This document shows positions 1,007 to 39,725 of a stretch of DNA of 39,725 nt, piece after piece. A program made the translations under genes and the position numbers. How positions within the stretch are numbered: position 1 is the first letter of the stretch; each line of letters opens with the position of its first letter. Below the pieces are notes generated by a model, which did no database searches, had not been told where the DNA came from, and saw only the letters and a program-made list of their open reading frames with translations. This DNA comes from a virus (taxonomy: Duplodnaviria > Heunggongvirae > Uroviricota > Caudoviricetes): IMG/VR virus record IMGVR_UViG_638341086_000010; one strand, given 5' to 3'.

Positions 1007-1582
1007 CTACGGTAGGGCTGGCCATTCAATATCCGGTGCAGTTGATGTATCAACACGATTCAGCAACACCCGATACTTTTTCCAGGCTTCCAGCAACAAG
1101 GTTTCTTTCTCCGTTGCGATCTCCAGATCCACAGCATCCTGAAGCGGCGCTATATGCTCACTGGCTACCTGCATCAGGCTGTTTTTTGTTTCTTCCGCCT
1201 CCCGGATCCGGAACAGTTTTTCTGCTTCCGTATCCTTCACCCAGGCTGTGCCGTTCCACTTCTGAAACTCCCCTTCCGGGGATAACCAGGTGACATTTTC
1301 CGGTAATGAGCCGAGTTCAGAAATAAATAACGCGTCGCCGGAAGCCACGTCATAAACCGTTTTACCCCGATGATCTTCAACGAGATGCCACGATGACTCA
1401 TCACTGTTGAAAACAGCCACGAAACCAGCCGGAATATCTGGCGGTGCAATATCGGTACTGTTTGCTGGCAGACCTGTATGAGGCGGAATATATGCATCAC
1501 CTTCACCAATAAATTCATTAGTTCCGGACAGCAGATTATAAATTTTTATGGTCCGTGGTTGTTCACTCATTCTGAATGCCAT
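1007..1582 (-). CDS. tfa: Tail fiber assembly protein Tfa (lambda Tfa-like), 191 aa
   Basis: Translation [18 protein letters not shown]... matches lambda Tfa as recalled; start ATG overlaps stf stop by 1 nt (TAATG). Confidence 0.9.
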
Positions 1583-4500
1583 TATGCAAGCCTCACAATA
1601 TAGTTAAATGCGATGTTTTTGACGGTGTTTTCCGCGTTACCAGCAGCGTTAACGGTGATGGTGTGTCCATGTGAGCCAATCGCAACCGAGTGCGTATGAG
1701 CACCAATACCGACAGTATGTGCGTGAGCACCTGCAGATGCAGCTGTGCCGCTGACACTATGAGTGTGCGCTCCTGCAGCACTTGTATTCACACTGGCCGC
1801 AGACACTACCTTATGTACTGACCCATTTTGTGACCACTGGCTGACTGCTGATGCGCCTGTGACACTATGAGTATGGTTTCCGGCACTTGCGGCTGTACCG
1901 CTCACACTGTGCGTATGCGCCCCGATGTTATTCGTGGATTTAGTGCCGTAATCAAACGACGATGTGGTTTTCGTCCCCAAATCCGTACTGGATGCGCTGG
2001 CGCTGTGGGTGTGCGATTTAATGCCGTCCTGTTCCTGAGACAATACAGCCCGACCACTGGCAGGTTTGCCCTTAATCGTCCAGCCACGCATATCAGGGAT
2101 CACGCCTGACGGATAAGCGGCTGCAAGTTTCGGGTATGCAGATTTGTCAAAAGTCTGCCCCTGCATCAGGGCATAACCAGACGGAACGGTATCTGATGGC
2201 CACGGGATTGGTGCACCGACTGGATAAAACTCTGCAGGAGGATGAGCCGAGGTGTAAAGCTGCGCCCACGGCGACCAGTTTGCGTCGGTCGTATCCCGTC
2301 GTGAACGAATAAATGCCGGAGCATGAGCACCGCTTGTACCACTCCAGCCGATGAGTAACTCACCTTCGCCAACGGCTGTCATCCCTTTCAGGTGAATGAT
2401 ATTTCCATACGTTGTTGGATATCCGTTGTTATACACCTCGTATAACTCAAGACCTGCTGCCCCCTGCGTATTGTCTGTCAGCGCGGCTACCCGACCTTTT
2501 GAAGCCAGATTAACTGATGATACTGCTGTTCCACCTGACGGTAGCGCCCCGATCTCTGATGCCGTTGGCTTATTTCTGGAGTTATAGTCCCTTCGCCAGC
2601 CAGGTGAATAATCTGTTCCGTGATTAATATAGGTAAACTGGGCGTTGGTTGTTCCGCCACCGCTGGATGTGGTCGGAGTGGTAATGCGGATCGTCATCGC
2701 TGACTTTATCCCCATTACTTCAATGACAGCTCCGGCGAGATGAATATTACCGCAGCCAGTATCAGTAATGATTTTATTATTGCCATAAGACCAGGAACCC
2801 TTGCACATCCAGTATGGATGGTTAAATGCTCCCTGAGAATCCAGCCACTCGATAAACTGTGCAGTCGTCCAGTTTCCTGTTGTTGTGCTTACTGACCCAC
2901 CGAAGGCACGGCAGGCACCAATATTTTTCGTAAAGGTGTCTTTGCCAGGGATATCCGCACCGTTCTGATCTTTCTGCAGACGTTTCTCAGCATTGTCATT
3001 GGCTGCTTTTACTGCCTTTGGCGTTGCCGCCAGCGTTTCAGACGTGCTGTTGGTCGCGCTGCTTAGCTGGATTATCCCTTTCTGTGCTGTCGTTGCATCC
3101 TGTGCGGTGTATTTCCCGTTAGCCAGGTCATACGCGGCCTTAACGGCTTTTGGTGTTGCCGCCAGTGACTCGGAAGTGCTGTTAGTCGCACTACTGAGCT
3201 GTACTATCCCCTTTTTCGTCGTGCTCGCATCCTCAAGCGCCACGGCGGATGCAATATCCTCTGCCCGTTTTGCCGCTGTCTCAGCGCGCGTTGCTGCAGA
3301 TTCCGCCGTACTTTTGCTCTGAGCTGCTGCCTTCGCACTACCAGCAGCCTCTGTCGCCTTCGTGGATGCCGTCGTGGCGCTGCCCTTCGCTGCTGACGCC
3401 TGTCTGGTCGCCTCATCTTTTGAAGCAGACGCCGATGATGCCGATGACGCCGCCGAACTGGCGGACGATGCCGCTGCCGTTTTTGAGGATTCTGCACGGG
3501 TTTCCGACGCTTTCGCGTTCGTTTCGGATGTCTTCGCTGCGGAAGCTGACCTCGCTGCTGCCGTGGCCTGCTCAGTGGCTTCGCCAGCCTTTGTTGTGGC
3601 TGTTGAAGCGGATGATGCGGCGCTTTCTGCCGATTTTCCGGCGGCGGTGGCACTGGCTGAGGCCTGCCCGGCACTTGTTGACGCGGCACTGGCAGACGAC
3701 GCAGCCGCTGTTTTTGAGCCTGCCGCAGCTGAGGCGCTCTGTCCCGCTGCCGTCTCAGAAGACCTGGCGTTCGTCTCGGACGTTTTTGCCGCCTTCGCGG
3801 AATTTCCTGCCGCCGTTGCCGAGGAAGCTGCGCTACTGGCGCTCAAGGATGCGTTCGTTTCTGATGATTTCGCTGCCTCTTTTGAGGCCGCCGCATCCCG
3901 GGCTGAGGTGGCAGCTTCTGACGCTTTCGTGGTCGCGGTGGATGCAGAAGTGGCGGCTGATTGTTCTGACGCTGCGGCATTCGTTTCTGACGTTTTCGCC
4001 GCACCGGCACTGGTAGCTGCCACGCTTTTTGAGGACTCTGCAGCGGCAGCACTTTTTGAGGCTTCAGTGGCCTTTGTTGATGCCGTTCCTGCGCTGGAAG
4101 ACGCTGACTGAGCCGACGAAGCGGCCTGTCCGGCTGACGTGCTGGCTGCACGTGCTGAATCTGCAGCATCAGTCGCATGGGTTGCCGCCTCACGGGCAGA
4201 TGTGCTGGCATCGCCGGCTGACTTCTTCGCGGCTGCCGTGTTCTGTGCCACTACGGACGCGTTACGCGCCACCTCTTCCACCATCAGTTCAAAACGGCGC
4301 AGTGCCTCCGGACGGGCATCATCCTCCGTCATGGCACCGAGAAAATCATTCAGCGTACCGGGTTGAGAATCTTCATACACGGTGATGGTCCCGGCATGTG
4401 ACGGCGGGAATCCTTCCACCAACAGAATAACGCTGTACTGACCGTACTCAACGTCCATGCTGTAACGCCCGGCTTCATCCGGATTTTCTGAGGCCAGCGT

Positions 4501-4608
4501 GTTCACCACCACCGTGGTGCTGTTACGTTTTGCTTTCAGCTGGATTGTGCAGTTCTCTACCGGTTTTCCTGTGCCGTCTTTCAGTACACCTGAAATCTTT
4601 ACTGCCAT
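1582..4608 (-). CDS. stf: Side tail fiber protein Stf (lambda Stf-like), about 1008 aa
   Basis: N-terminus [26 protein letters not shown]... matches lambda Stf as recalled; long Ala/Ser/Thr-rich repeat region, Gly-rich region and His-rich C-terminal repeats ([15 protein letters not shown]). ATG at 4608 chosen over the upstream GTG at 4614 used by the ORF track. Confidence 0.9.
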
Positions 4609-4620
4609 ATTCACCCCACA

Positions 4621-32445: not shown

Positions 32446-32985
32446 TCATATCGCCCCCAGCATGGTAGTAACCATCGCCATCAATGGACCAGCCAGATCT
32501 GGGTCCACACGAAACATCGACACAATACCTTCACTAATTTCCTTCAGTTTCTGGTGGCGTGGTGCGTTGAGAATGACAGCCTGTTTTGCCTCACTGAGTT
32601 CCTTTTCCATTTCAGCCAACCTAGCCATGAAGCTATCCTGCTCAACCAGGTAACCGCGATATTCCAGCGGTAGTACCGCCAGAATTGCCGGGGTCAGTTC
32701 ACGCACGTTATTTCGGTATTTTTCAGAATCGAATTTGTTATCGAGGAAGCGGAACAGCTTCTGGCGTGCACGGCTGACATCATCAGGGAAATCGATGGTG
32801 CCGCCGCCCTGCTCCCGATACTCATTCACAATGAGTGTGGCAACGACATCCTGATTATCTACAGCCGACCAGGCGCGGACGGCATCACGGATTTTTTCGT
32901 GGCCTGGCACCTGTTTTGTTTGAGAACGATTTATCACCGCAGTCGGGCTAAATCCGCTAGTCTGTTGGTATGTAAGTGGTTGCAT
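32446..32985 (-). CDS. YdaT-like (Rac prophage CII-position) regulatory protein, 179 aa
   Basis: Sits in the cII position between the cro-like gene and O; motifs (…EYREQGGG… …LTPAILAVLPLEYR…) resemble Rac YdaT as recalled; AAGGAG RBS. Confidence 0.7.
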   Translation of the reverse strand: MQPLTYQQTSGFSPTAVINRSQTKQVPGHEKIRDAVRAWSAVDNQDVVATLIVNEYREQGGGTIDFPDDVSRARQKLFRFLDNKFDSEKYRNNVRELTPAILAVLPLEYRGYLVEQDSFMARLAEMEKELSEAKQAVILNAPRHQKLKEISEGIVSMFRVDPDLAGPLMAMVTTMLGAI

Positions 32986-33053
32986 AATTGCTCCTTTAGT
33001 TTGAATTGACTGTTAAGTTGATTGCTTATTGTTAAAGAGCGTGAAATGGAAAT

Positions 33054-33284
33054 TTAAGCTGCGTTCTTTTCGGTGTGTGGAAACAACTTCGGAAGATCCG
33101 GGCGAATCTGGTATGCCTTCACTACTCCACCAGTAGCCGTAACAATGCTGCCGACATGTTCAGGGGATACCTTTGCTTTGTTGTGAAGCCACTTATAGAC
33201 GGCCTGCTGTGAAACTTCGCAAGCAGCGCCCAGTTTCTTTTGTGAACCAACGATATTGATCGCTGTTTTGATAGCTGGGTTCAT
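33054..33284 (-). CDS. Cro/YdaS-like HTH repressor, 76 aa
   Basis: Small HTH protein (…KKLGAACEVSQQAVYKWL…) divergent from cI across an operator region; GGAGG RBS. Confidence 0.8.
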   Translation of the reverse strand: MNPAIKTAINIVGSQKKLGAACEVSQQAVYKWLHNKAKVSPEHVGSIVTATGGVVKAYQIRPDLPKLFPHTEKNAA

Positions 33285-33318
33285 AACAACCTCCGTGGTT
33301 AATTTGAATCAAGATTAA

Positions 33319-33379
33319 AACCATGGTTGTTTTTAGTCAACAACCATTTTCGTTTGATGAAATAAAACCTTGGTTGTAC
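33319..33379. promoter_or_regulatory. Right operator region (OR-like): repeated AACCATGGTTG / CAACCAT / AACCTTGGTTG dyad motifs between the divergent cro-like and cI genes
   Basis: Three related palindromic motifs within the 104-bp divergent intergenic region. Individual promoter hexamers were not assigned. Confidence 0.55.
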
Positions 33380-33388
33380 ATTTGGACT

Positions 33389-34078
33389 ATGAAAACAACA
33401 CTCTCAGAAAGACTTAAAGAAGCCAGATTAGCGCGAGGCCTTACACAAAAGGCGCTTGGGGATTTGGTCGGGGTTAGCCAGGCTGCTATTCAGAAAATCG
33501 AAACAGGGAAAGCTAATCAAACAACTAAAATCGTGGAGATCGCGAACGCTTTGGGTGTGCGCGCAGAATGGTTATCTTCTGGCGTTGGAAATATGTCAGA
33601 CAGTACAGTGCAACCAATACAATCAACTGTCAGCCATTCCAAATACTTCAAGATTGACGTTCTTGATATAGAAGTCAGTGCTGGGCCGGGAGTCATCAAC
33701 CGTGAGTTTGTAGAAGTTCTACGCTCGGTTGAGTACTCGTTTGACGATGCTCGTCACATGTTCGATGGTAGGAAGGCGGAAAATATCCGCATCATTAACG
33801 TGCGTGGTGACAGCATGTCAGGAACGATCGAACCAGGTGATCTGCTGTTCGTTGATATCACAGTTAAATCTTTCGACGGTGATGGTATCTATGCGTTTCT
33901 GTACGACGACACAGCCCATGTAAAGCGCCTGCAAATGATGAAGGATAAGCTGCTGGTCATCTCTGATAACAAAAGCTACTCACCGTGGGACCCGATCGAG
34001 AAAGACGAGATGAACCGGGTGTTCATCTTCGGTAAGGTTATTGGGAGCATGCCGCAGACATATAGGAAGCATGGGTAG
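33389..34078 (+). CDS. cI: CI-type prophage repressor (N-terminal HTH plus C-terminal S24 LexA-like autopeptidase), about 229 aa
   Basis: HTH region (…LTQKALGDLVGVSQAAIQKIETG…) and S24 peptidase motifs (…GDSMSGTIEPGDLLFVD… …KRL…); ATG at 33389 chosen because the ORF-track start at 33323 lies inside the operator region. Confidence 0.85.
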   Translation: MKTTLSERLKEARLARGLTQKALGDLVGVSQAAIQKIETGKANQTTKIVEIANALGVRAEWLSSGVGNMSDSTVQPIQSTVSHSKYFKIDVLDIEVSAGPGVINREFVEVLRSVEYSFDDARHMFDGRKAENIRIINVRGDSMSGTIEPGDLLFVDITVKSFDGDGIYAFLYDDTAHVKRLQMMKDKLLVISDNKSYSPWDPIEKDEMNRVFIFGKVIGSMPQTYRKHG

Positions 34079-34199
34079 TACCAATTAAAAATTATCAACT
34101 GGGCATTGTGCTCATTCAGTAAAGAACTAATTCCTATCTTTGCTCTAGGTAGTAATATTAAGCCACCGCAATAATATCTTTACCTAACGGCGTAAGAAT

Positions 34200-34229
34200 C
34201 CCGGTCACCGTGCCGGGTTTTCTTTTGCC
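34200..34229 (+). terminator. Rho-independent terminator downstream of cI
   Basis: CCCGG-TCACCGTG-CCGGG followed by TTTTCTTTT on the plus strand. Confidence 0.6.
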
Positions 34230-34361
34230 CTCCCCTCATCACACACACCGTTAAAAAAACCACCATAACCTCGCTTCAGTTATCGCTATGCGATTCAAGT
34301 CACAAAATAAATCCATCCTAAATACAACCAGTTATATCTAAAGCAACCAATAAAACAACTT

Positions 34362-34396
34362 TTGTTGTTGACGATAAAACAACTATAGTTTTAAAT
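34362..34396 (+). promoter_or_regulatory. Candidate pL promoter with flanking operator-like dyad (AACAAC-N4-GTTGTT)
   Basis: TTGACG followed 17 nt later by TTAAAT; adjacent inverted repeat AACAACTTTTGTTGTT. Assignment is from sequence pattern and position only. Confidence 0.35.
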
Positions 34397-34589
34397 AAGT
34401 TCATCGCAACAACACAACGATACGGCAACTACCTGATTCACCGTTGCGATGACCGCTTAGATCCGCAGTTTGAATTTCAGCAGGCTTCGGGGAGTGCGAG
34501 GGGTGAAACGGACGCGTGAACGTCGGTGTGACCAGCTGAAATTAACTCAACATTTCATACCTTAGTCGCTTCAACGAGGCGGCTTAGTT

Positions 34590-34880
34590 ATGACAACCAG
34601 CGGCCATCCACCGCCTGAATACGCGCAGAAGTCTCTATATGTTCAGCAGCCCAGCTTACGGGCAGGAGTTTTTATGGTTCATCAACATTATGGAACGCAG
34701 ACCGTTAATCGAGGTGCGGTCATGCCAGGAATGCTGGTCAAACACAAAGATGGTACCTGGACTGCATCAGCTAATTTACGCGGACGGCTTTATCTGCATC
34801 GCGGCATCGAGCGCACTTATACCCGTGATTTGCTCGTGGAAGTTTTTCTCGACGGACGCGGTAACGGCCTGAATCACTAA
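34590..34880 (+). CDS. Hypothetical first protein of the early-left operon (96 aa as called; an internal start would give about 68 aa); possibly Kil/KilR-like
   Basis: First ORF after the pL leader, in the position where lambda has kil/cIII and Rac has kilR. Not arginine-rich, so not an N-type antiterminator. Function is a guess. Confidence 0.45.
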
Positions 34881-34955
34881 TCCCCTTTCCTGTTTTCCTA
34901 ATCAGCCTGGCATTTCGCGGGCGATATTTTCACAGCCATTTTCAGGAGGTCAGCC

Positions 34956-35252
34956 ATGAACGCTTATTACATTCAGGATCGTCTTGAGGCTCAGAGCTGG
35001 GCGCGTCACTACCAGCAGATCGCCCGTGAAGAGAAAGAGGCAGAACTGGCAGACGACATGGAAAAAGGCCTGCCCCAGCACCTGTTTGAATCGCTATGCA
35101 TCGATCATTTGCAACGCCACGGGGCCAGCAAAAAAGCCATTACCCGTGCGTTTGATGACGATGTTGAGTTTCAGGAGCGCATGGCAGAACACATCCAGTA
35201 CATGGTTGAAACCATTGCTCACCACCAGGTTGATATTGATTCAGAGGTATAA
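34956..35252 (+). CDS. gam: Gam (RecBCD inhibitor), short GamS form, 98 aa
   Basis: Translation [48 protein letters not shown]... matches lambda GamS as recalled; AGGAGG RBS. Confidence 0.93.
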
Positions 35253-35257
35253 AACGG

Positions 35258-36043
35258 ATGAGTACAGCACTCGCAACGCTGGCAGGGAAGCTGGCTGAAC
35301 GTGTCGGCATGGATTCTGTCGACCCACAGGAACTGATCACCACTCTTCGCCAGACGGCATTTAAAGGTGATGCCAGCGATGCGCAGTTCATCGCATTGTT
35401 GATCGTCGCCAACCAGTACGGCCTTAATCCGTGGACGAAAGAAATTTACGCCTTCCCTGATAAGCAGAACGGCATCGTTCCGGTGGTGGGCGTTGATGGC
35501 TGGTCCCGCATCATCAATGAAAACCAGCAGTTTGATGGCATGGACTTTGAGCAGGACAATGAATCCTGTACATGCCGGATTTACCGCAAGGACCGTAATC
35601 ATCCGATCTGCGTTACCGAATGGATGGATGAATGCCGCCGCGAACCATTCAAAACTCGCGAAGGCAGAGAAATCACGGGGCCGTGGCAGTCGCATCCCAA
35701 ACGGATGTTACGGCATAAAGCCATGATTCAGTGTGCCCGTCTGGCCTTCGGATTTGCTGGTATCTATGACAAGGATGAAGCCGAGCGCATTGTCGAAAAT
35801 ACTGCATACACTGCAGAACGTCAGCCAGAACGCGACATCACTCCGGTTAACGATGAAACCATGCAGGAGATTAACACTCTGCTGATCGCCCTGGATAAAA
35901 CATGGGATGACGACTTATTGCCGCTCTGTTCCCAGATATTTCGCCGCGACATTCGCGCATCGTCAGAACTGACACAGGCCGAAGCAGTGAAAGCTCTTGG
36001 ATTCCTGAAACAGAAAGCCACTGAGCAGAAGGTGGCAGCATGA
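35258..36043 (+). CDS. bet: Bet (Red-beta single-strand annealing recombinase), 261 aa
   Basis: 261 aa, the same length as lambda Bet, N-terminus [41 protein letters not shown].... Confidence 0.95.
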
Positions 36044-36720
36044 CACCGGACATTATCCTGCAGCGTACCGGGATCGACGTGAGAGCTGTCGAACAGGGGG
36101 ATGATGCATGGCACAAATTACGGCTCGGCGTCATCACCGCTTCAGAAGTTCACAACGTGATAGCAAAGCCCCGCTCAGGAAAAAAGTGGCCTGACATGAA
36201 AATGTCCTACTTCCACACCCTGCTGGCTGAGGTTTGCACCGGTGTGGCTCCGGAAGTTAATGCTAAGGCGCTGGCCTGGGGAAAACAGTACGAGAACGAC
36301 GCCAGAACCCTGTTTGAATTCACTTCCGGCGTGAATGTTACTGAATCCCCGATCATCTATCGCGACGAAAGTATGCGCACCGCCTGCTCTCCCGATGGTT
36401 TATGCAGTGACGGCAACGGCCTTGAACTGAAATGCCCGTTTACCTCCCGGGATTTCATGAAGTTCCGGCTCGGTGGTTTCGAGGCCATAAAATCGGCTTA
36501 CATGGCCCAGGTGCAGTACAGCATGTGGGTGACGCGAAAAGATGCCTGGTACTTTGCCAACTATGACCCGCGTATGAAGCGTGAAGGCCTGCATTATGTC
36601 GTGATTGAGCGGAATGAAAAGTACATGGCGAATTTTGACGAGATGGTGCCGGAGTTCATCGAAAAAATGGACGTGGCACTGGCTGAAATTGGTTTTGTAT
36701 TTGGGGAGCAATGGCGATGA
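36040..36720 (+). CDS. exo: Exo (Red-alpha 5-prime to 3-prime exonuclease), 226 aa
   Basis: 226 aa, the same length as lambda Exo, N-terminus [43 protein letters not shown]...; ATGA overlap with bet. Confidence 0.95.
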
Positions 36721-36878
36721 AGCATCCTCACGATAATATCCGGGTAGGCGCGATCACTTTCATCTACTCCGTTACAAAGCGAGGCTGGGTATTTCCCGGC
36801 CTTTCTGTTATCAGAAATCCACTGAAAGCACAGCGGCTGGCTGAGGCGATAAATAATAAACGGGGGCTGTATGACTGA
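36717..36878 (+). CDS. Small hypothetical protein (53 aa), translationally coupled between exo and the methyltransferase
   Basis: ATG overlaps the exo stop (ATGA) and its stop overlaps the methyltransferase start (ATGACTGA); translation [24 protein letters not shown].... Below the ORF-track threshold, read manually. Confidence 0.45.
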
Positions 36879-37428
36879 TTTCACCGGAAGCAATACTCCT
36901 GCCGAACATCGCGACAGCTGGCGCACACCACCAGAGATTTTTGCTGCGCTTAATGCAGAGTTCGTTTTTCAACTTGATGCTGCCGCCAGCGAAAAAAACC
37001 GACTATGTCGGCTTTTTATCTCACAGGAGCAGAACACATTAACCACTTCATGGCCTGAAGCAATGGGATATGCCTCTGGTTATGTCTGGTTGAATCCACC
37101 ATACAGCAATATTTCCCCTTTTGTGAAAAAGGCAGCCACTGAAAACAAATTCAGTAGTGTGGGATGTGTAATGTTATTGCCTGCTGACACATCTGTCGGA
37201 TGGTTTCATGAAGCGATACAAACCGCCAGTGAGGTCAGATTCATCACGGCAGGACGACTGGCATTTATTAACCCACTCACTGAGAAACCCGTCAGTGGAA
37301 ATAATAAAGGCTCGATGCTCATTATCTGGCACCCATACCCCCGTACACACTGCCACTTTACGACCGTTGATCGTGGAGAGTTGATGGCGTTCGGCTCAAG
37401 GATTCTTGCCCGTCGGGAGGCTGCATGA
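36871..37428 (+). CDS. Phage-type DNA N6-adenine methyltransferase (orphan, Dam-like), 185 aa
   Basis: Catalytic NPPY motif (…YVWLNPPYSNISPF…) and overall similarity to the small phage N6-adenine methyltransferase family; no adjacent restriction endonuclease gene. Confidence 0.8.
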   Translation: MTDFTGSNTPAEHRDSWRTPPEIFAALNAEFVFQLDAAASEKNRLCRLFISQEQNTLTTSWPEAMGYASGYVWLNPPYSNISPFVKKAATENKFSSVGCVMLLPADTSVGWFHEAIQTASEVRFITAGRLAFINPLTEKPVSGNNKGSMLIIWHPYPRTHCHFTTVDRGELMAFGSRILARREAA

Positions 37429-37508
37429 CAACCACGGAATGCATTTTTCTGGCAGCGGGCTTCATATTCTGTGTGCTTATGCTTGCCGATATGGGACTTG
37501 TTCAATGA
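37425..37508 (+). CDS. Small hydrophobic peptide (27 aa), candidate membrane peptide, translationally coupled
   Basis: ATG overlaps the methyltransferase stop (ATGA) and its stop overlaps the next start (ATGA); translation MTTTECIFLAAGFIFCVLMLADMGLVQ is one predicted TM helix. Coding status unverified. Confidence 0.35.
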   Translation: MTTTECIFLAAGFIFCVLMLADMGLVQ

Positions 37509-37720
37509 CACCTCAGCAGGAAAACGCCCTTCGCAGCATTGCCCGTCAGGCTAATTCTGAAATCAAAAAAGCCAGACAGCAGTTTCCGGATAAAAACGTC
37601 GATGACATTTGCCGTAGCGTACTTAAGAAGCACCGCGAAACGGTAACGCTGATGGGATTCACACCGACTCATTTAAGCCTGGCGATCGGCATGTTAAACG
37701 GCGTCTTTAAGGAACGGTGA
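37505..37720 (+). CDS. Hypothetical protein, 71 aa
   Basis: ATG coupled to the upstream small ORF; translation MTPQQENALRSIARQANSEIKKARQQFPDKNVDDICRSVLKKHRETV.... The ORF-track version (37406) runs out of frame through the methyltransferase 3-prime end. Confidence 0.55.
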   Translation: MTPQQENALRSIARQANSEIKKARQQFPDKNVDDICRSVLKKHRETVTLMGFTPTHLSLAIGMLNGVFKER

Positions 37721-37818
37721 ACATGAAAAGCAAAATCATCAGGGAGCTACAGGCTCCTTTTTTATTGTTCGCATTCATCCTCAAGCGTATTAACCAACAA
37801 TTCAGGGATTAATGGAAG

Positions 37819-38037
37819 ATGGCAGACATCATTGATTCAGCATCAGAAATCGAAGAATTACAGCGCAATACAGCAATAAAAATGCGTCGTCAGAACTACC
37901 AGACTGTATCCGCAACTCATTGTTGTGAGTGTGGCGATCCGATAGATGAGCGAAGACGCCTGGCTGTTCAGGGTTGTCGGACTTGTGCAAGTTGCCAGGA
38001 GGAGATCGAACTTAAGAACAAACAATGGGGACTGTGA
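37819..38037 (+). CDS. TraR/DksA-family C4-type zinc-finger protein, 72 aa
   Basis: Four-cysteine motif CxxC…(17)…CxxC (…CCECGDPIDERRRLAVQGCRTCASCQ…) and a size typical of phage TraR-like proteins. Confidence 0.8.
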   Translation: MADIIDSASEIEELQRNTAIKMRRQNYQTVSATHCCECGDPIDERRRLAVQGCRTCASCQEEIELKNKQWGL

Positions 38038-38084
38038 TGGCCTCAAAGCAGCAAATTTCAACATCGTCCAACTGAGGTGTAAAA

Positions 38085-38363
38085 ATGTTCAGAATCATTT
38101 TTCCTAACACCTGGTACGTCGACCACCACGGCACTCCCTGCAAAATCCTGCGTTCTACCCACAACAAAGTTCACTACATCCGAAAAGGCAGAACATGTAT
38201 CGCCAGCATGTTCCGCTTTAATCATGACTTTGAACCTGTGAATAAAGCTGATGCAGATCGGATAGCAGAAGAGATCGAAACGGCAGAACACATTAAGAAG
38301 TTACGTGACATGCGTTCAAAAAGCAGAGGTAACCATGGAATCATACAGCCTCACACTCGATGA
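38085..38363 (+). CDS. Hypothetical protein, 92 aa
   Basis: ORF with GAGGTG RBS 5 nt upstream; no recognisable motif. Confidence 0.55.
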   Translation: MFRIIFPNTWYVDHHGTPCKILRSTHNKVHYIRKGRTCIASMFRFNHDFEPVNKADADRIAEEIETAEHIKKLRDMRSKSRGNHGIIQPHTR

Positions 38364-38706
38364 GGCCTGTCAGTTTCTTAAGATATCCAGACCAACCGCC
38401 ACCAACTGGATACGAACAGGCCGCCTACAGGCAACACGTAAAGATCCAACCAAGCCAAAATCTCCTTACCTCACAACACGGCAAGCCTGCATTGCGGCGC
38501 TTCAGTCTCCGCTGCATACTGTCCAGGTGAGCGCGGGTGATGGCATAACAGAGGAAAGAAAATGTCACTCTTCCGCAGAAATGAAATATGGTATGCCTCG
38601 TATTCGCTCCCGGGCGGGAAACGAATTAAGGAATCTCTTGGCACAAAGGACAAGCGGCAAGCTCAGGAGTTGCACGACAAGCGAAAAGCAGAACTCTGGC
38701 GAGTAG
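38335..38706 (+). CDS. xis: Excisionase-like DNA-binding protein (AlpA/Xis family); 124 aa as read, with a C-terminal extension that overlaps int
   Basis: GAGGT RBS; N-terminal 60 aa resemble winged-helix excisionases (…[26 protein letters not shown]…). The frame stays open for 145 nt into int, so the true 3-prime end is uncertain. Confidence 0.55.
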
Positions 38707-39725
38707 AAAAGCTAGGGGATTTACCTGATGTCACTTTTGAAGAGGCCTGCCTAAGATGGCTTGAGGAAAAAGCTGATAAAAAATCTCTCGATTCAGATAA
38801 AAGCCGGATTGAGTTCTGGCTTGAACATTTTGAGGGTATAAGGCTTAAAGATATCTCGGAGGCAAAGATTTACTCTGCTGTAAGCAGAATGCATAACAGA
38901 AAGACGAAAGAAATATGGAAACAGAAAGTTCAGGCCGCCATCAGGAAAGGTAAAGAACTGCCTGTTTATGAACCAAAGCCAGTATCAACTCAGACAAAGG
39001 CAAAGCATCTTGCCATGATAAAGGCCATTCTCCGTGCTGCAGAACGCGACTGGAAGTGGCTGGAAAAAGCGCCTGTCATCAAGATACCAGCGGTCAGAAA
39101 CAAGCGAGTCAGATGGCTGGAAAAGGAGGAAGCAAAACGCCTTATTGATGAGTGCCCCGAACCACTGAAATCTGTCGTCAAGTTTGCGCTGGCAACTGGT
39201 CTGAGAAAGTCGAACATCATAAATCTGGAATGGCAACAAATCGACATGCAGCGACGAGTTGCCTGGGTGAATCCAGAAGAGAGCAAATCAAACCGCGCCA
39301 TTGGTGTGGCGCTGAACGATACCGCCTGTAAAGTGTTGCGTGATCAAATAGGCAAGCATCACAAATGGGTGTTTGTACATACCAAGGCGGCTAAGCGAGC
39401 AGATGGAACATCAACGCCTGCGGTCAGGAAGATGCGCATCGACAGCAAGACATCATGGCTATCAGCTTGTCGTCGTGCAGGAATTGAAGATTTCCGTTTC
39501 CATGACCTCAGACACACCTGGGCAAGCTGGCTGATTCAGTCAGGCGTCCCATTATCAGTGCTTCAGGAAATGGGCGGATGGGAGTCCATAGAAATGGTTC
39601 GTAGGTATGCTCACCTTGCGCCTAATCATTTGACAGAGCATGCGAGGAAAATAGACGACATTTTTGGTGATAATGTCCCAAATATGTCCCACTCTGGAAT
39701 TATGGAGGATATAAAGAAGGCGTAA
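38562..39725 (+). CDS. intD: Tyrosine integrase (DLP12 IntD-type), 387 aa
   Basis: C-terminal catalytic motifs (…[11 protein letters not shown]… …[15 protein letters not shown]…); the whole translation matches the DLP12 integrase as recalled. The gene ends at the window edge, so the att site and target tRNA are outside the window. Confidence 0.92.

Follow-up and report, generated by a model that had tools for sequence, protein, structure and literature searches.

The DNA considered here, a 39,725-nucleotide (nt) viral sequence (IMG/VR record IMGVR_UViG_638341086_000010) that is referred to in its entirety as the window, is a lambdoid prophage that from position 26364 to its end is 99.9% identical to a prophage of Escherichia coli S10. 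Towards that end, a series of overlapping open reading frames (ORFs) leads from the recombination genes bet and exo through the short ORF orf53, an N6-adenine methyltransferase gene and a 27-codon ORF, herein called ORF27, to orf71 (Table 1). Judged from its sequence, this block is the promoter-distal part of a lambdoid prophage's early-left operon, made up of kil, gam, bet and exo and then of an exo-xis block of the lambda type, with Pfam matches to Gam, RecT, YqaJ, DUF1317, Dam, TraR and DUF4222 across it. The operon layout is already annotated in hundreds of genomes and the gene chain is not a new system; the sole fresh point is ORF27, a small gene that has probably been overlooked, is found in lambda too and also corrects the gene model of orf61.

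An earlier sequence-only reading of this DNA had described six consecutive ORFs, bet to orf71, overlapping stop to start through ATGA or ATGACTGA. When the overlaps were re-checked by script, all five successive junctions could be read in the sequence: ATGA at bet/exo, exo/orf53, methyltransferase/ORF27 and ORF27/orf71, and ATGACTGA, an 8-nt overlap, at orf53/methyltransferase. All ORFs of the chain are in frame, with one terminal stop each. Two details have to be amended, as the interval given for the chain (36717-37720) holds four of its six ORFs, with bet and exo lying upstream, and the chain does not end at orf71 but runs one overlap further into a 31-codon ORF (a sixth junction, GTGA in the window and ATGA in lambda). 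The Shine-Dalgarno energy is -10.3 kcal/mol for ORF27 (GGGAGG, the second-strongest of the operon) and a weak -3.9 kcal/mol for orf71, whose homologue has a better site (-5.6 kcal/mol, GAGG) in loci without ORF27. Ribosomes finishing one gene would re-initiate on the next where its start codon overlaps the preceding stop, a step that we infer from the overlaps and the Shine-Dalgarno strengths; this pattern fits translational coupling, in agreement with the co-translation that had been proposed.

Table 1 Features of the early-left operon and the adjoining prophage end in the window.
Feature	Position	Strand	Evidence and remarks
Putative pL-like early-left promoter	34350..34396	+	-35 TTGACG, 17-nt spacer, -10 TTAAAT; read from the sequence
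kil-like cell-division inhibitor gene	34674..34880	+	Annotated in the 99.9% identical E. coli S10 prophage
gam (RecBCD inhibitor)	34956..35252	+	Pfam PF06064, E = 2e-64
bet (RecT-family annealase)	35258..36043	+	Pfam PF03837; stop overlaps exo start, ATGA
exo (lambda exonuclease)	36040..36720	+	Pfam PF09588 (YqaJ); stop overlaps orf53 start, ATGA
orf53, homologue of lambda orf60a (DUF1317)	36717..36878	+	Pfam PF07026, E = 5e-32; phrog_1998
Orphan phage Dam-family N6-adenine methyltransferase gene, 185 amino acids (aa)	36871..37428	+	PF05869, E = 2e-56; TIGR01712
ORF27, probable single-helix membrane-peptide gene	37425..37508	+	Conservation, own-frame synonymous excess, Shine-Dalgarno site, hydrophobicity
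orf71, orf61-family gene	37505..37720	+	phrog_303; synonymous excess
Doubtful 31-codon ORF	37717..37812	+	Overlaps orf71 stop; runs through terminator hairpin
Intrinsic-terminator-like hairpin	37741..37768	+	AGGGAGC-TAC-AGGCTCCT, then T-run; closes the coupled chain
orf73-type TraR/DksA zinc-finger gene, 72 aa	37819..38037	+	PF01258; phrog_54; aligned with the lambda 73-aa ORF
DUF4222 gene in the place of lambda ea22	38085..38363	+	PF13973
IntD/P22-type integrase gene	38562..39725	+	Prophage end; adjoins tRNA-Arg in the matching genome

The genes orf60a-orf63-orf61-orf73 form a conserved exo-xis core that is expressed from pL, and ea22 is counted within the conserved block (PMC8614690). Early expression from pL and a reported influence on lysogenisation and prophage induction are features of this region, which the Wegrzyn and Donaldson groups have studied. 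In lambda, the counterpart stretch consists of exo, orf60a, orf63, orf61, the 73-aa zinc-finger ORF and ea22. The window block occupies the same position between exo and xis/int, with orf60a (DUF1317) right behind exo, and further on the orf61-family gene followed by the orf73 zinc-finger gene, these two at 97-99% DNA identity to lambda and Shiga toxin (Stx) phages. Indeed, the DNA on both sides of the methyltransferase gene is 95-99% identical to lambda, lambda-like phages and Stx phages, a range that covers orf60a, ORF27, orf61 and orf73, and the likeness extends to the ATGA overlaps (exo/orf60a, orf63/ORF27 and ORF27/orf61 in lambda and the Stx phages) and to the terminator hairpin. It follows that orf53, which had been taken for an unclassified small ORF, is lambda orf60a, with a C-terminus that, when aligned with lambda and 2G7b, is seen to be shortened and altered by the joint with the methyltransferase gene and by a variable run of G residues. 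The window also differs from these phages: orf63 (DUF1382) is absent between orf60a and orf61 and a Dam-family methyltransferase stands in its place, a DUF4222 gene instead of ea22 lies behind orf73, a point at which the window truly departs from lambda, and an IntD/P22-type integrase is encoded. The window prophage also lacks the +1 frameshift that laboratory lambda carries in orf61.

ORF27 encodes the 27-residue peptide MTTTECIFLAAGFIFCVLMLADMGLVQ. The same peptide is encoded in lambda (31008-30925, complementary strand), again with ATGA at both ends, and an identical one in Stx phages. Of 212 fetched loci, 197 have the frame unbroken and beginning with ATGA, and a tblastn search found 175 phage records with matches over 80% or more of the peptide and 90-100% identity in protein sequence, 138 of them at 100%. 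Conservation in relatives, on which the sequence-only reading had made its small ORFs depend, holds for ORF27. We then considered how the codons vary, using 203 loci with 24 haplotypes and 23 variant alleles. In the frame of ORF27, 13 alleles are synonymous and 10 non-synonymous, where neutrality would give a synonymous fraction of 0.26 (p = 0.0018), and the other two frames over the same DNA give synonymous to non-synonymous counts of 6 to 17 and 3 to 20 (p at least 0.64). In this, ORF27 resembles the accepted genes orf71 (27 to 30, p = 0.0014) and orf73 (26 to 28). After de-duplication to 105 distinct 1-kb contexts, all seven alleles that occur in at least five contexts are synonymous in the ORF27 frame. 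The peptide is hydrophobic, with a grand average of hydropathy (GRAVY) of 1.62 and a best Kyte-Doolittle 19-residue window of 2.33, which places it in the top 3% among the short ORFs of the window. By our own estimate, an ATGA followed by an open 27-codon frame arises by chance in ~7% of cases, so that the credibility of ORF27 comes from conservation and codon evidence and not from the overlap alone. Considering these sequence data together, ORF27 is probably a translated, sequence-constrained gene for a small membrane peptide, shared by lambda and Stx phages, which would also hand ribosomes on to the orf61-family gene, whose ribosome-binding site is weak.

That automated annotation would miss such an ORF had been anticipated, and ORF27 indeed has no Pfam, PHROG or NCBIfam family and carries no annotation in RefSeq; it appears sporadically as a “hypothetical protein” in older annotations. 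In E. coli S10 (NZ_CP010229, fetched locus L226, 3729-3806) the RefSeq locus tags skip from RG66_RS01045 to RS01055 exactly at ORF27, a jump that suggests that an earlier annotation had a gene there that was later dropped. With its 27 residues and single predicted helix, ORF27 resembles other small hydrophobic proteins of bacteria and phages that annotation has missed; unlike these, it is confined to lambdoid phages of Escherichia, outside of which tblastn with the peptide found no relatives. Apparently “divergent” protein relatives of orf71 and ORF27 were rejected as indel-ridden assemblies or a copy disrupted by an insertion sequence (IS). A scan of a genome collection for relatives of the two returned mostly laboratory-lambda contamination in unrelated assemblies; the contigs of L088-L101, from assemblies labelled as Shewanella, Bradyrhizobium, Pseudomonas, Paenibacillus, Kitasatospora and others, are identical to laboratory lambda, including its 7-A allele (see below), and presumably represent contamination with control DNA.

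The same DNA can be read in another frame, in which ORF27 is no gene and positions 37439-37504 encode 22 residues at the N-terminus of an orf61 protein of 93 aa. Such a form is given in GenBank for 933W (L0070) and Stx2 phage 86 (orf49), and by size for Phi24B (vb_24B_7c); phrog_303 is built on it, and an in-frame ATG for it exists at 37439. Moreover, Escherichia sp. E1V33 (L087, ~2420-2500) has lost 14 nt within ORF27, a deletion that destroys this ORF and brings an ATG preceded by a GGAGG site into the frame of orf61, resulting in a 94-aa form behind a different upstream gene. Nevertheless, we regard the 93-aa protein as quite unlikely, given that the variation in its frame is nearly all non-synonymous (3 to 20 overall) and that, within the de-duplicated overlap of the two frames, its count of 2 to 13 compares with 9 to 6 for ORF27 (Fisher p = 0.02). 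Its ATG at 37439 lacks a Shine-Dalgarno site (-1.5 kcal/mol), the RefSeq annotation pipeline PGAP calls the 71-aa form, and in a modelling paper AlphaFold and RoseTTAFold are reported to disagree on where residues 1-23 of Phi24B Orf61 lie.

It could also be that ORF27 is translated purely as a ribosome relay to the start of the orf61-family gene and that its peptide has no function. The ATGA at both of its ends, the orf71 Shine-Dalgarno site that is weak here (-3.9) and better (-5.6, GAGG) in loci lacking ORF27, and the dispensability of ORF27 in ~16 loci would all be expected of a relay. However, a pure relay needs just an open frame, yet the amino acids are kept (100% identity in 138 of 176 phage records) and it is the synonymous sites that vary, and the ORF is composed like a membrane helix, a hydrophobicity that just 3% of the short ORFs in the window equal. 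A relay without a functional peptide is thus a less probable account, albeit one to be taken seriously, and we favor a constrained peptide gene that would relay ribosomes in addition.

In RefSeq, the orf61-family gene orf71 is named either “hypothetical” or “cell division protein ZapA”. Laboratory lambda has a run of seven A residues, GAAATCAAAAAA(A)GCC, against six in every natural allele, at ~30,865 of NC_001416 (L003, ~1640-1650), which corresponds to ~37565-37575 in the window. Apart from lambda itself, the 7-A allele was met solely in unrelated assemblies contaminated with lambda. The longer run frameshifts the 71-aa gene, which means that the annotated “orf61” of lambda (61 aa) is a chimeric remnant in which an upstream ATG from another frame is joined to the opening 22 codons of the true gene. 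Orf61 has been reported in the literature to appear truncated in lambda, and the +1 frameshift at the 7-A run explains this look.

The 31-codon ORF behind orf71 is more doubtful. Its start overlaps the orf71 stop as GTGA in 92 loci and as ATGA in 73 loci, and its frame has no synonymous excess (5 to 12, p = 0.5). A review reports a 31-aa peptide, “orf2313”, from lambda ribosome profiling, and the 31-codon ORF, which matches it in size and is the only one of that length listed in the lambda stretch examined (L003, 1100-2150), may be the same. The terminator hairpin through which it runs is invariant in sequence in 207 of 224 fetched loci, and translation of this ORF would pass over the hairpin and could oppose termination.

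The methyltransferase gene upstream of ORF27 is an exchangeable cassette. In alignments with PhiR30_1 (99.8% identical), 2G7b and lambda, its ATG lies at the ATG of orf63 and its TGA at the TGA of orf63, with homology ending on the left at ..AAACGGGGGCTGT-ATG and resuming on the right at ATGA-CAACCAC. Among ~210 fetched loci, the slot is occupied by orf63 in 170, by the methyltransferase in 24 and by other genes in 16, numbers to be read as proportions and not as counts, given that the fetched set holds certain contigs twice. Among complete E. coli genomes, the block is found in 3,376 of 5,426 and its methyltransferase form in 243 of 5,426, where RefSeq names the product “phage N-6-adenine-methyltransferase”. 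The sequence-only reading had linked this gene to the Red recombination genes; what we find instead is a cassette at the usual place of orf63, annotated in hundreds of E. coli genomes. An Enterobacter prophage encodes a 79%-identical Dam at the corresponding exo-xis position, again flanked by ATGA on either side and with an unrelated HNH gene downstream. The 3' end of the methyltransferase gene, CGGGAGGCTGCATGA (R-E-A-A-stop; window 37410-37428), with the last codons ..CGG GAG GCT GCA TGA, is common to E. coli and Enterobacter (L230, 3545-3558). Since this end is shared in front of unrelated genes, the cassette comes equipped, in its end codons, with a strong Shine-Dalgarno site and an overlapping ATGA start, which would serve any gene that follows.

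A third cassette is seen in L109 (9795-10547) and ~12 similar IMG/VR loci, where a 250-aa gene of unknown function displaces orf63, ORF27 and the first orf61 codons, and orf61 has its own GAGG ribosome-binding site. Between them, orf63 with ORF27, Dam with ORF27 and the 250-aa gene make at least three alternatives for this slot. Lambdoid phages are mosaic at gene boundaries and exchange modules at start/stop joints, and the window cassette, swapped exactly from ATG to TGA, is a textbook example with nothing unusual about it. An exact ATG-to-TGA swap with a built-in ribosome-binding site is well suited to teaching how phage modules can remain capable of expression at whatever site they enter.

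The encoded enzyme passes both profile thresholds of its family (PF05869, 190.5 bits against a cut-off of 28.1, residues 6-177 of 185; the equivalog TIGR01712, 165.6 bits against 97.05) and has the catalytic motif NPPY (VWLNPPYSN). In an alignment with 12 homologues (66-84% identity), N75-P76-P77-Y78-S79 and an F-x-L-D-A-A-A block are invariant, and the window protein deviates at none of the invariant columns, so that the inactivating changes that could have undermined the earlier claim of a methyltransferase were looked for and are not there. A cognate endonuclease gene was found neither beside the methyltransferase gene, nor in the 99.9% identical annotated prophage, nor in the non-collinear parts of the window, which contain an invertase gene, tail-fibre genes and an IS3-family element. 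Given the profile scores, the full set of invariant residues and the lack of an endonuclease, we conclude that this is an intact orphan enzyme, as the sequence-only reading had stated. The idea that it might instead be a restriction-modification remnant or an inactive pseudogene is a general possibility in a prophage that is defective elsewhere through IS insertion; it is barely credible for an enzyme that is full length, retains every family-invariant residue and has 537 near-identical database members, in a prophage without an endonuclease-like gene and in a family (2,063 phage records for PF05869) that is typically orphan in phages.

Phage T1 Dam and HP1 Dam are members of the same PF05869/TIGR01712 family. 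Its orphan phage enzymes are, like that of the window, ~170-200 aa long with NPPY and no partner endonuclease, and occur in temperate and virulent enterobacterial phages. The window enzyme is 47% identical to the Dam of the Stx-phage nin region, from which it differs in sitting in the exo-xis block, and 37-45% identical to enzymes of T1-like phages. It is a routine orphan phage Dam-family enzyme that adds nothing new, and the anti-restriction or epigenetic roles that had been proposed for it are generic for this family. M.EcoVT2Dam of Stx phages is reported to be GATC-specific (PMC6602927), and by analogy GATC is the likeliest target here too. In the window, GATC is the most depleted 4-nt palindrome (95 observed vs 175 expected, 0.54), followed by GGCC (0.60), a depletion that such phages show generally and that does not decide the target. 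The enzyme would be made early after induction or infection and would methylate adenines in phage and host DNA. Two other assignments were rejected: the non-specific adenine methyltransferases of the Hia5 group are classical Dam-like DPPY/FxGxG enzymes of another family, and membership of MT-A70 is not indicated, with Pfam giving PF05869 only and the motif being NPPY and not DPPW.

A prophage “DNA adenine methyltransferase” from the early-left region of Stx2a phages, M.EcoPA8orf6770P, has been reported to act with PNB-2 on 16S rRNA (PMC10810198). The window enzyme, likewise tightly coupled to small genes of unknown function, might by extension act with a neighboring small protein on a substrate other than DNA. 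This we consider highly improbable, because the Stx2a enzyme belongs to MT-A70 and has DPPW, unlike the window enzyme with its NPPY and its PF05869/TIGR01712 matches only, because M.EcoVT2Dam from the window enzyme's own family is reported to methylate GATC in DNA, and because the Enterobacter cassette has quite different neighbors. The Stx2a pair, although alike in being an early-region “adenine methyltransferase” beside small proteins, serves as a caution only.

A more speculative thought concerns the production of this enzyme together with Gam, Bet and Exo. Over-expression of Dam disables MutHLS repair and raises recombineering yields. Over-methylation of replicating and recombining phage DNA at GATC would, by the same token, leave no hemimethylated signal for MutH, blind mismatch repair and permit homeologous Red recombination between diverged phage sequences, which would build lambdoid mosaics such as the cassette swap described above. 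We think it very unlikely that this is what the enzyme does, and mention it as a conjecture.

As for the wider prophage, the S10 counterpart is integrated at tRNA-Arg beside fimZ (the argU/intD site). Positions 25110-26323 of the window hold an IS3-family element, with transposase ORFs of 108 aa and 296 aa, where the S10 prophage has iss, lysis genes, a porin gene, the Q antiterminator gene, rusA, ninE and ybcN; with the element in place of iss, the lysis genes, Q and part of the nin region, the prophage is defective. Transcription of the operon would start at the pL-like promoter near 34370 and meet the hairpin terminator at 37741-37768, both predicted from sequence. The pL-like region has two copies of an operator-like repeat, ATAAAACAACT, which is matched in inverted orientation close to where the repressor gene starts; a consensus promoter scan did not list this promoter. 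No N-like antiterminator gene was found in the interval 34078-34674, between the repressor gene (33323-34078), with the putative pL (~34370), and kil. An Rfam scan of 32500-39725 gave no matches, and the leader from putative pL to kil is not unusually structured (z = -0.45), which leaves a put-like antitermination RNA unsupported. At the other end of the window, a Pin-like DNA invertase gene lies beside oppositely oriented tail-fibre and tail-fibre-assembly genes (319-909, 1007-4614), an arrangement that suggests an invertible host-range segment.

Taken as a whole, the reading of an exo-xis block with a methyltransferase cassette and with ORF27 as a membrane-peptide gene and relay toward orf61 has, in our estimation, a probability of about 0.8. 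Several observations weigh against it. The ORF27 family is narrow, restricted to Escherichia at no less than 95% DNA identity, and for this reason the codon test draws on only 22-23 alleles that are not phylogenetically independent. ORF27 is missing from ~16 loci, and the deletion in Escherichia sp. E1V33 described above destroys it. A review of lambda ribosome profiling gives only 7-aa and 31-aa extra peptides for this region and not a 27-aa one; in lambda, ORF27 lies wholly inside the annotated orf61, and by our own inference footprints there would be credited to orf61. The AlphaFold model of the methyltransferase (13 close homologues) has a mean predicted local distance difference test (pLDDT) score of 52, too poor for a fold search, and no solved structure related to it by sequence was found. 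Finally, with the Q and lysis region lost, this strain may seldom express the operon.

The exo-xis region has been reported to influence the lysis-lysogeny decision and the induction of toxin phages. If the reading of ORF27 is true, lambda and Shiga-toxin phages hold an overlooked membrane-peptide gene within this region, and the published “orf61” models (61 aa in lambda, 93 aa in 933W and Phi24B) have incorrect 5' ends. Residue 23 should then be the starting point for structural models of Orf61, and “orf61” deletions defined by those gene models would also remove ORF27.

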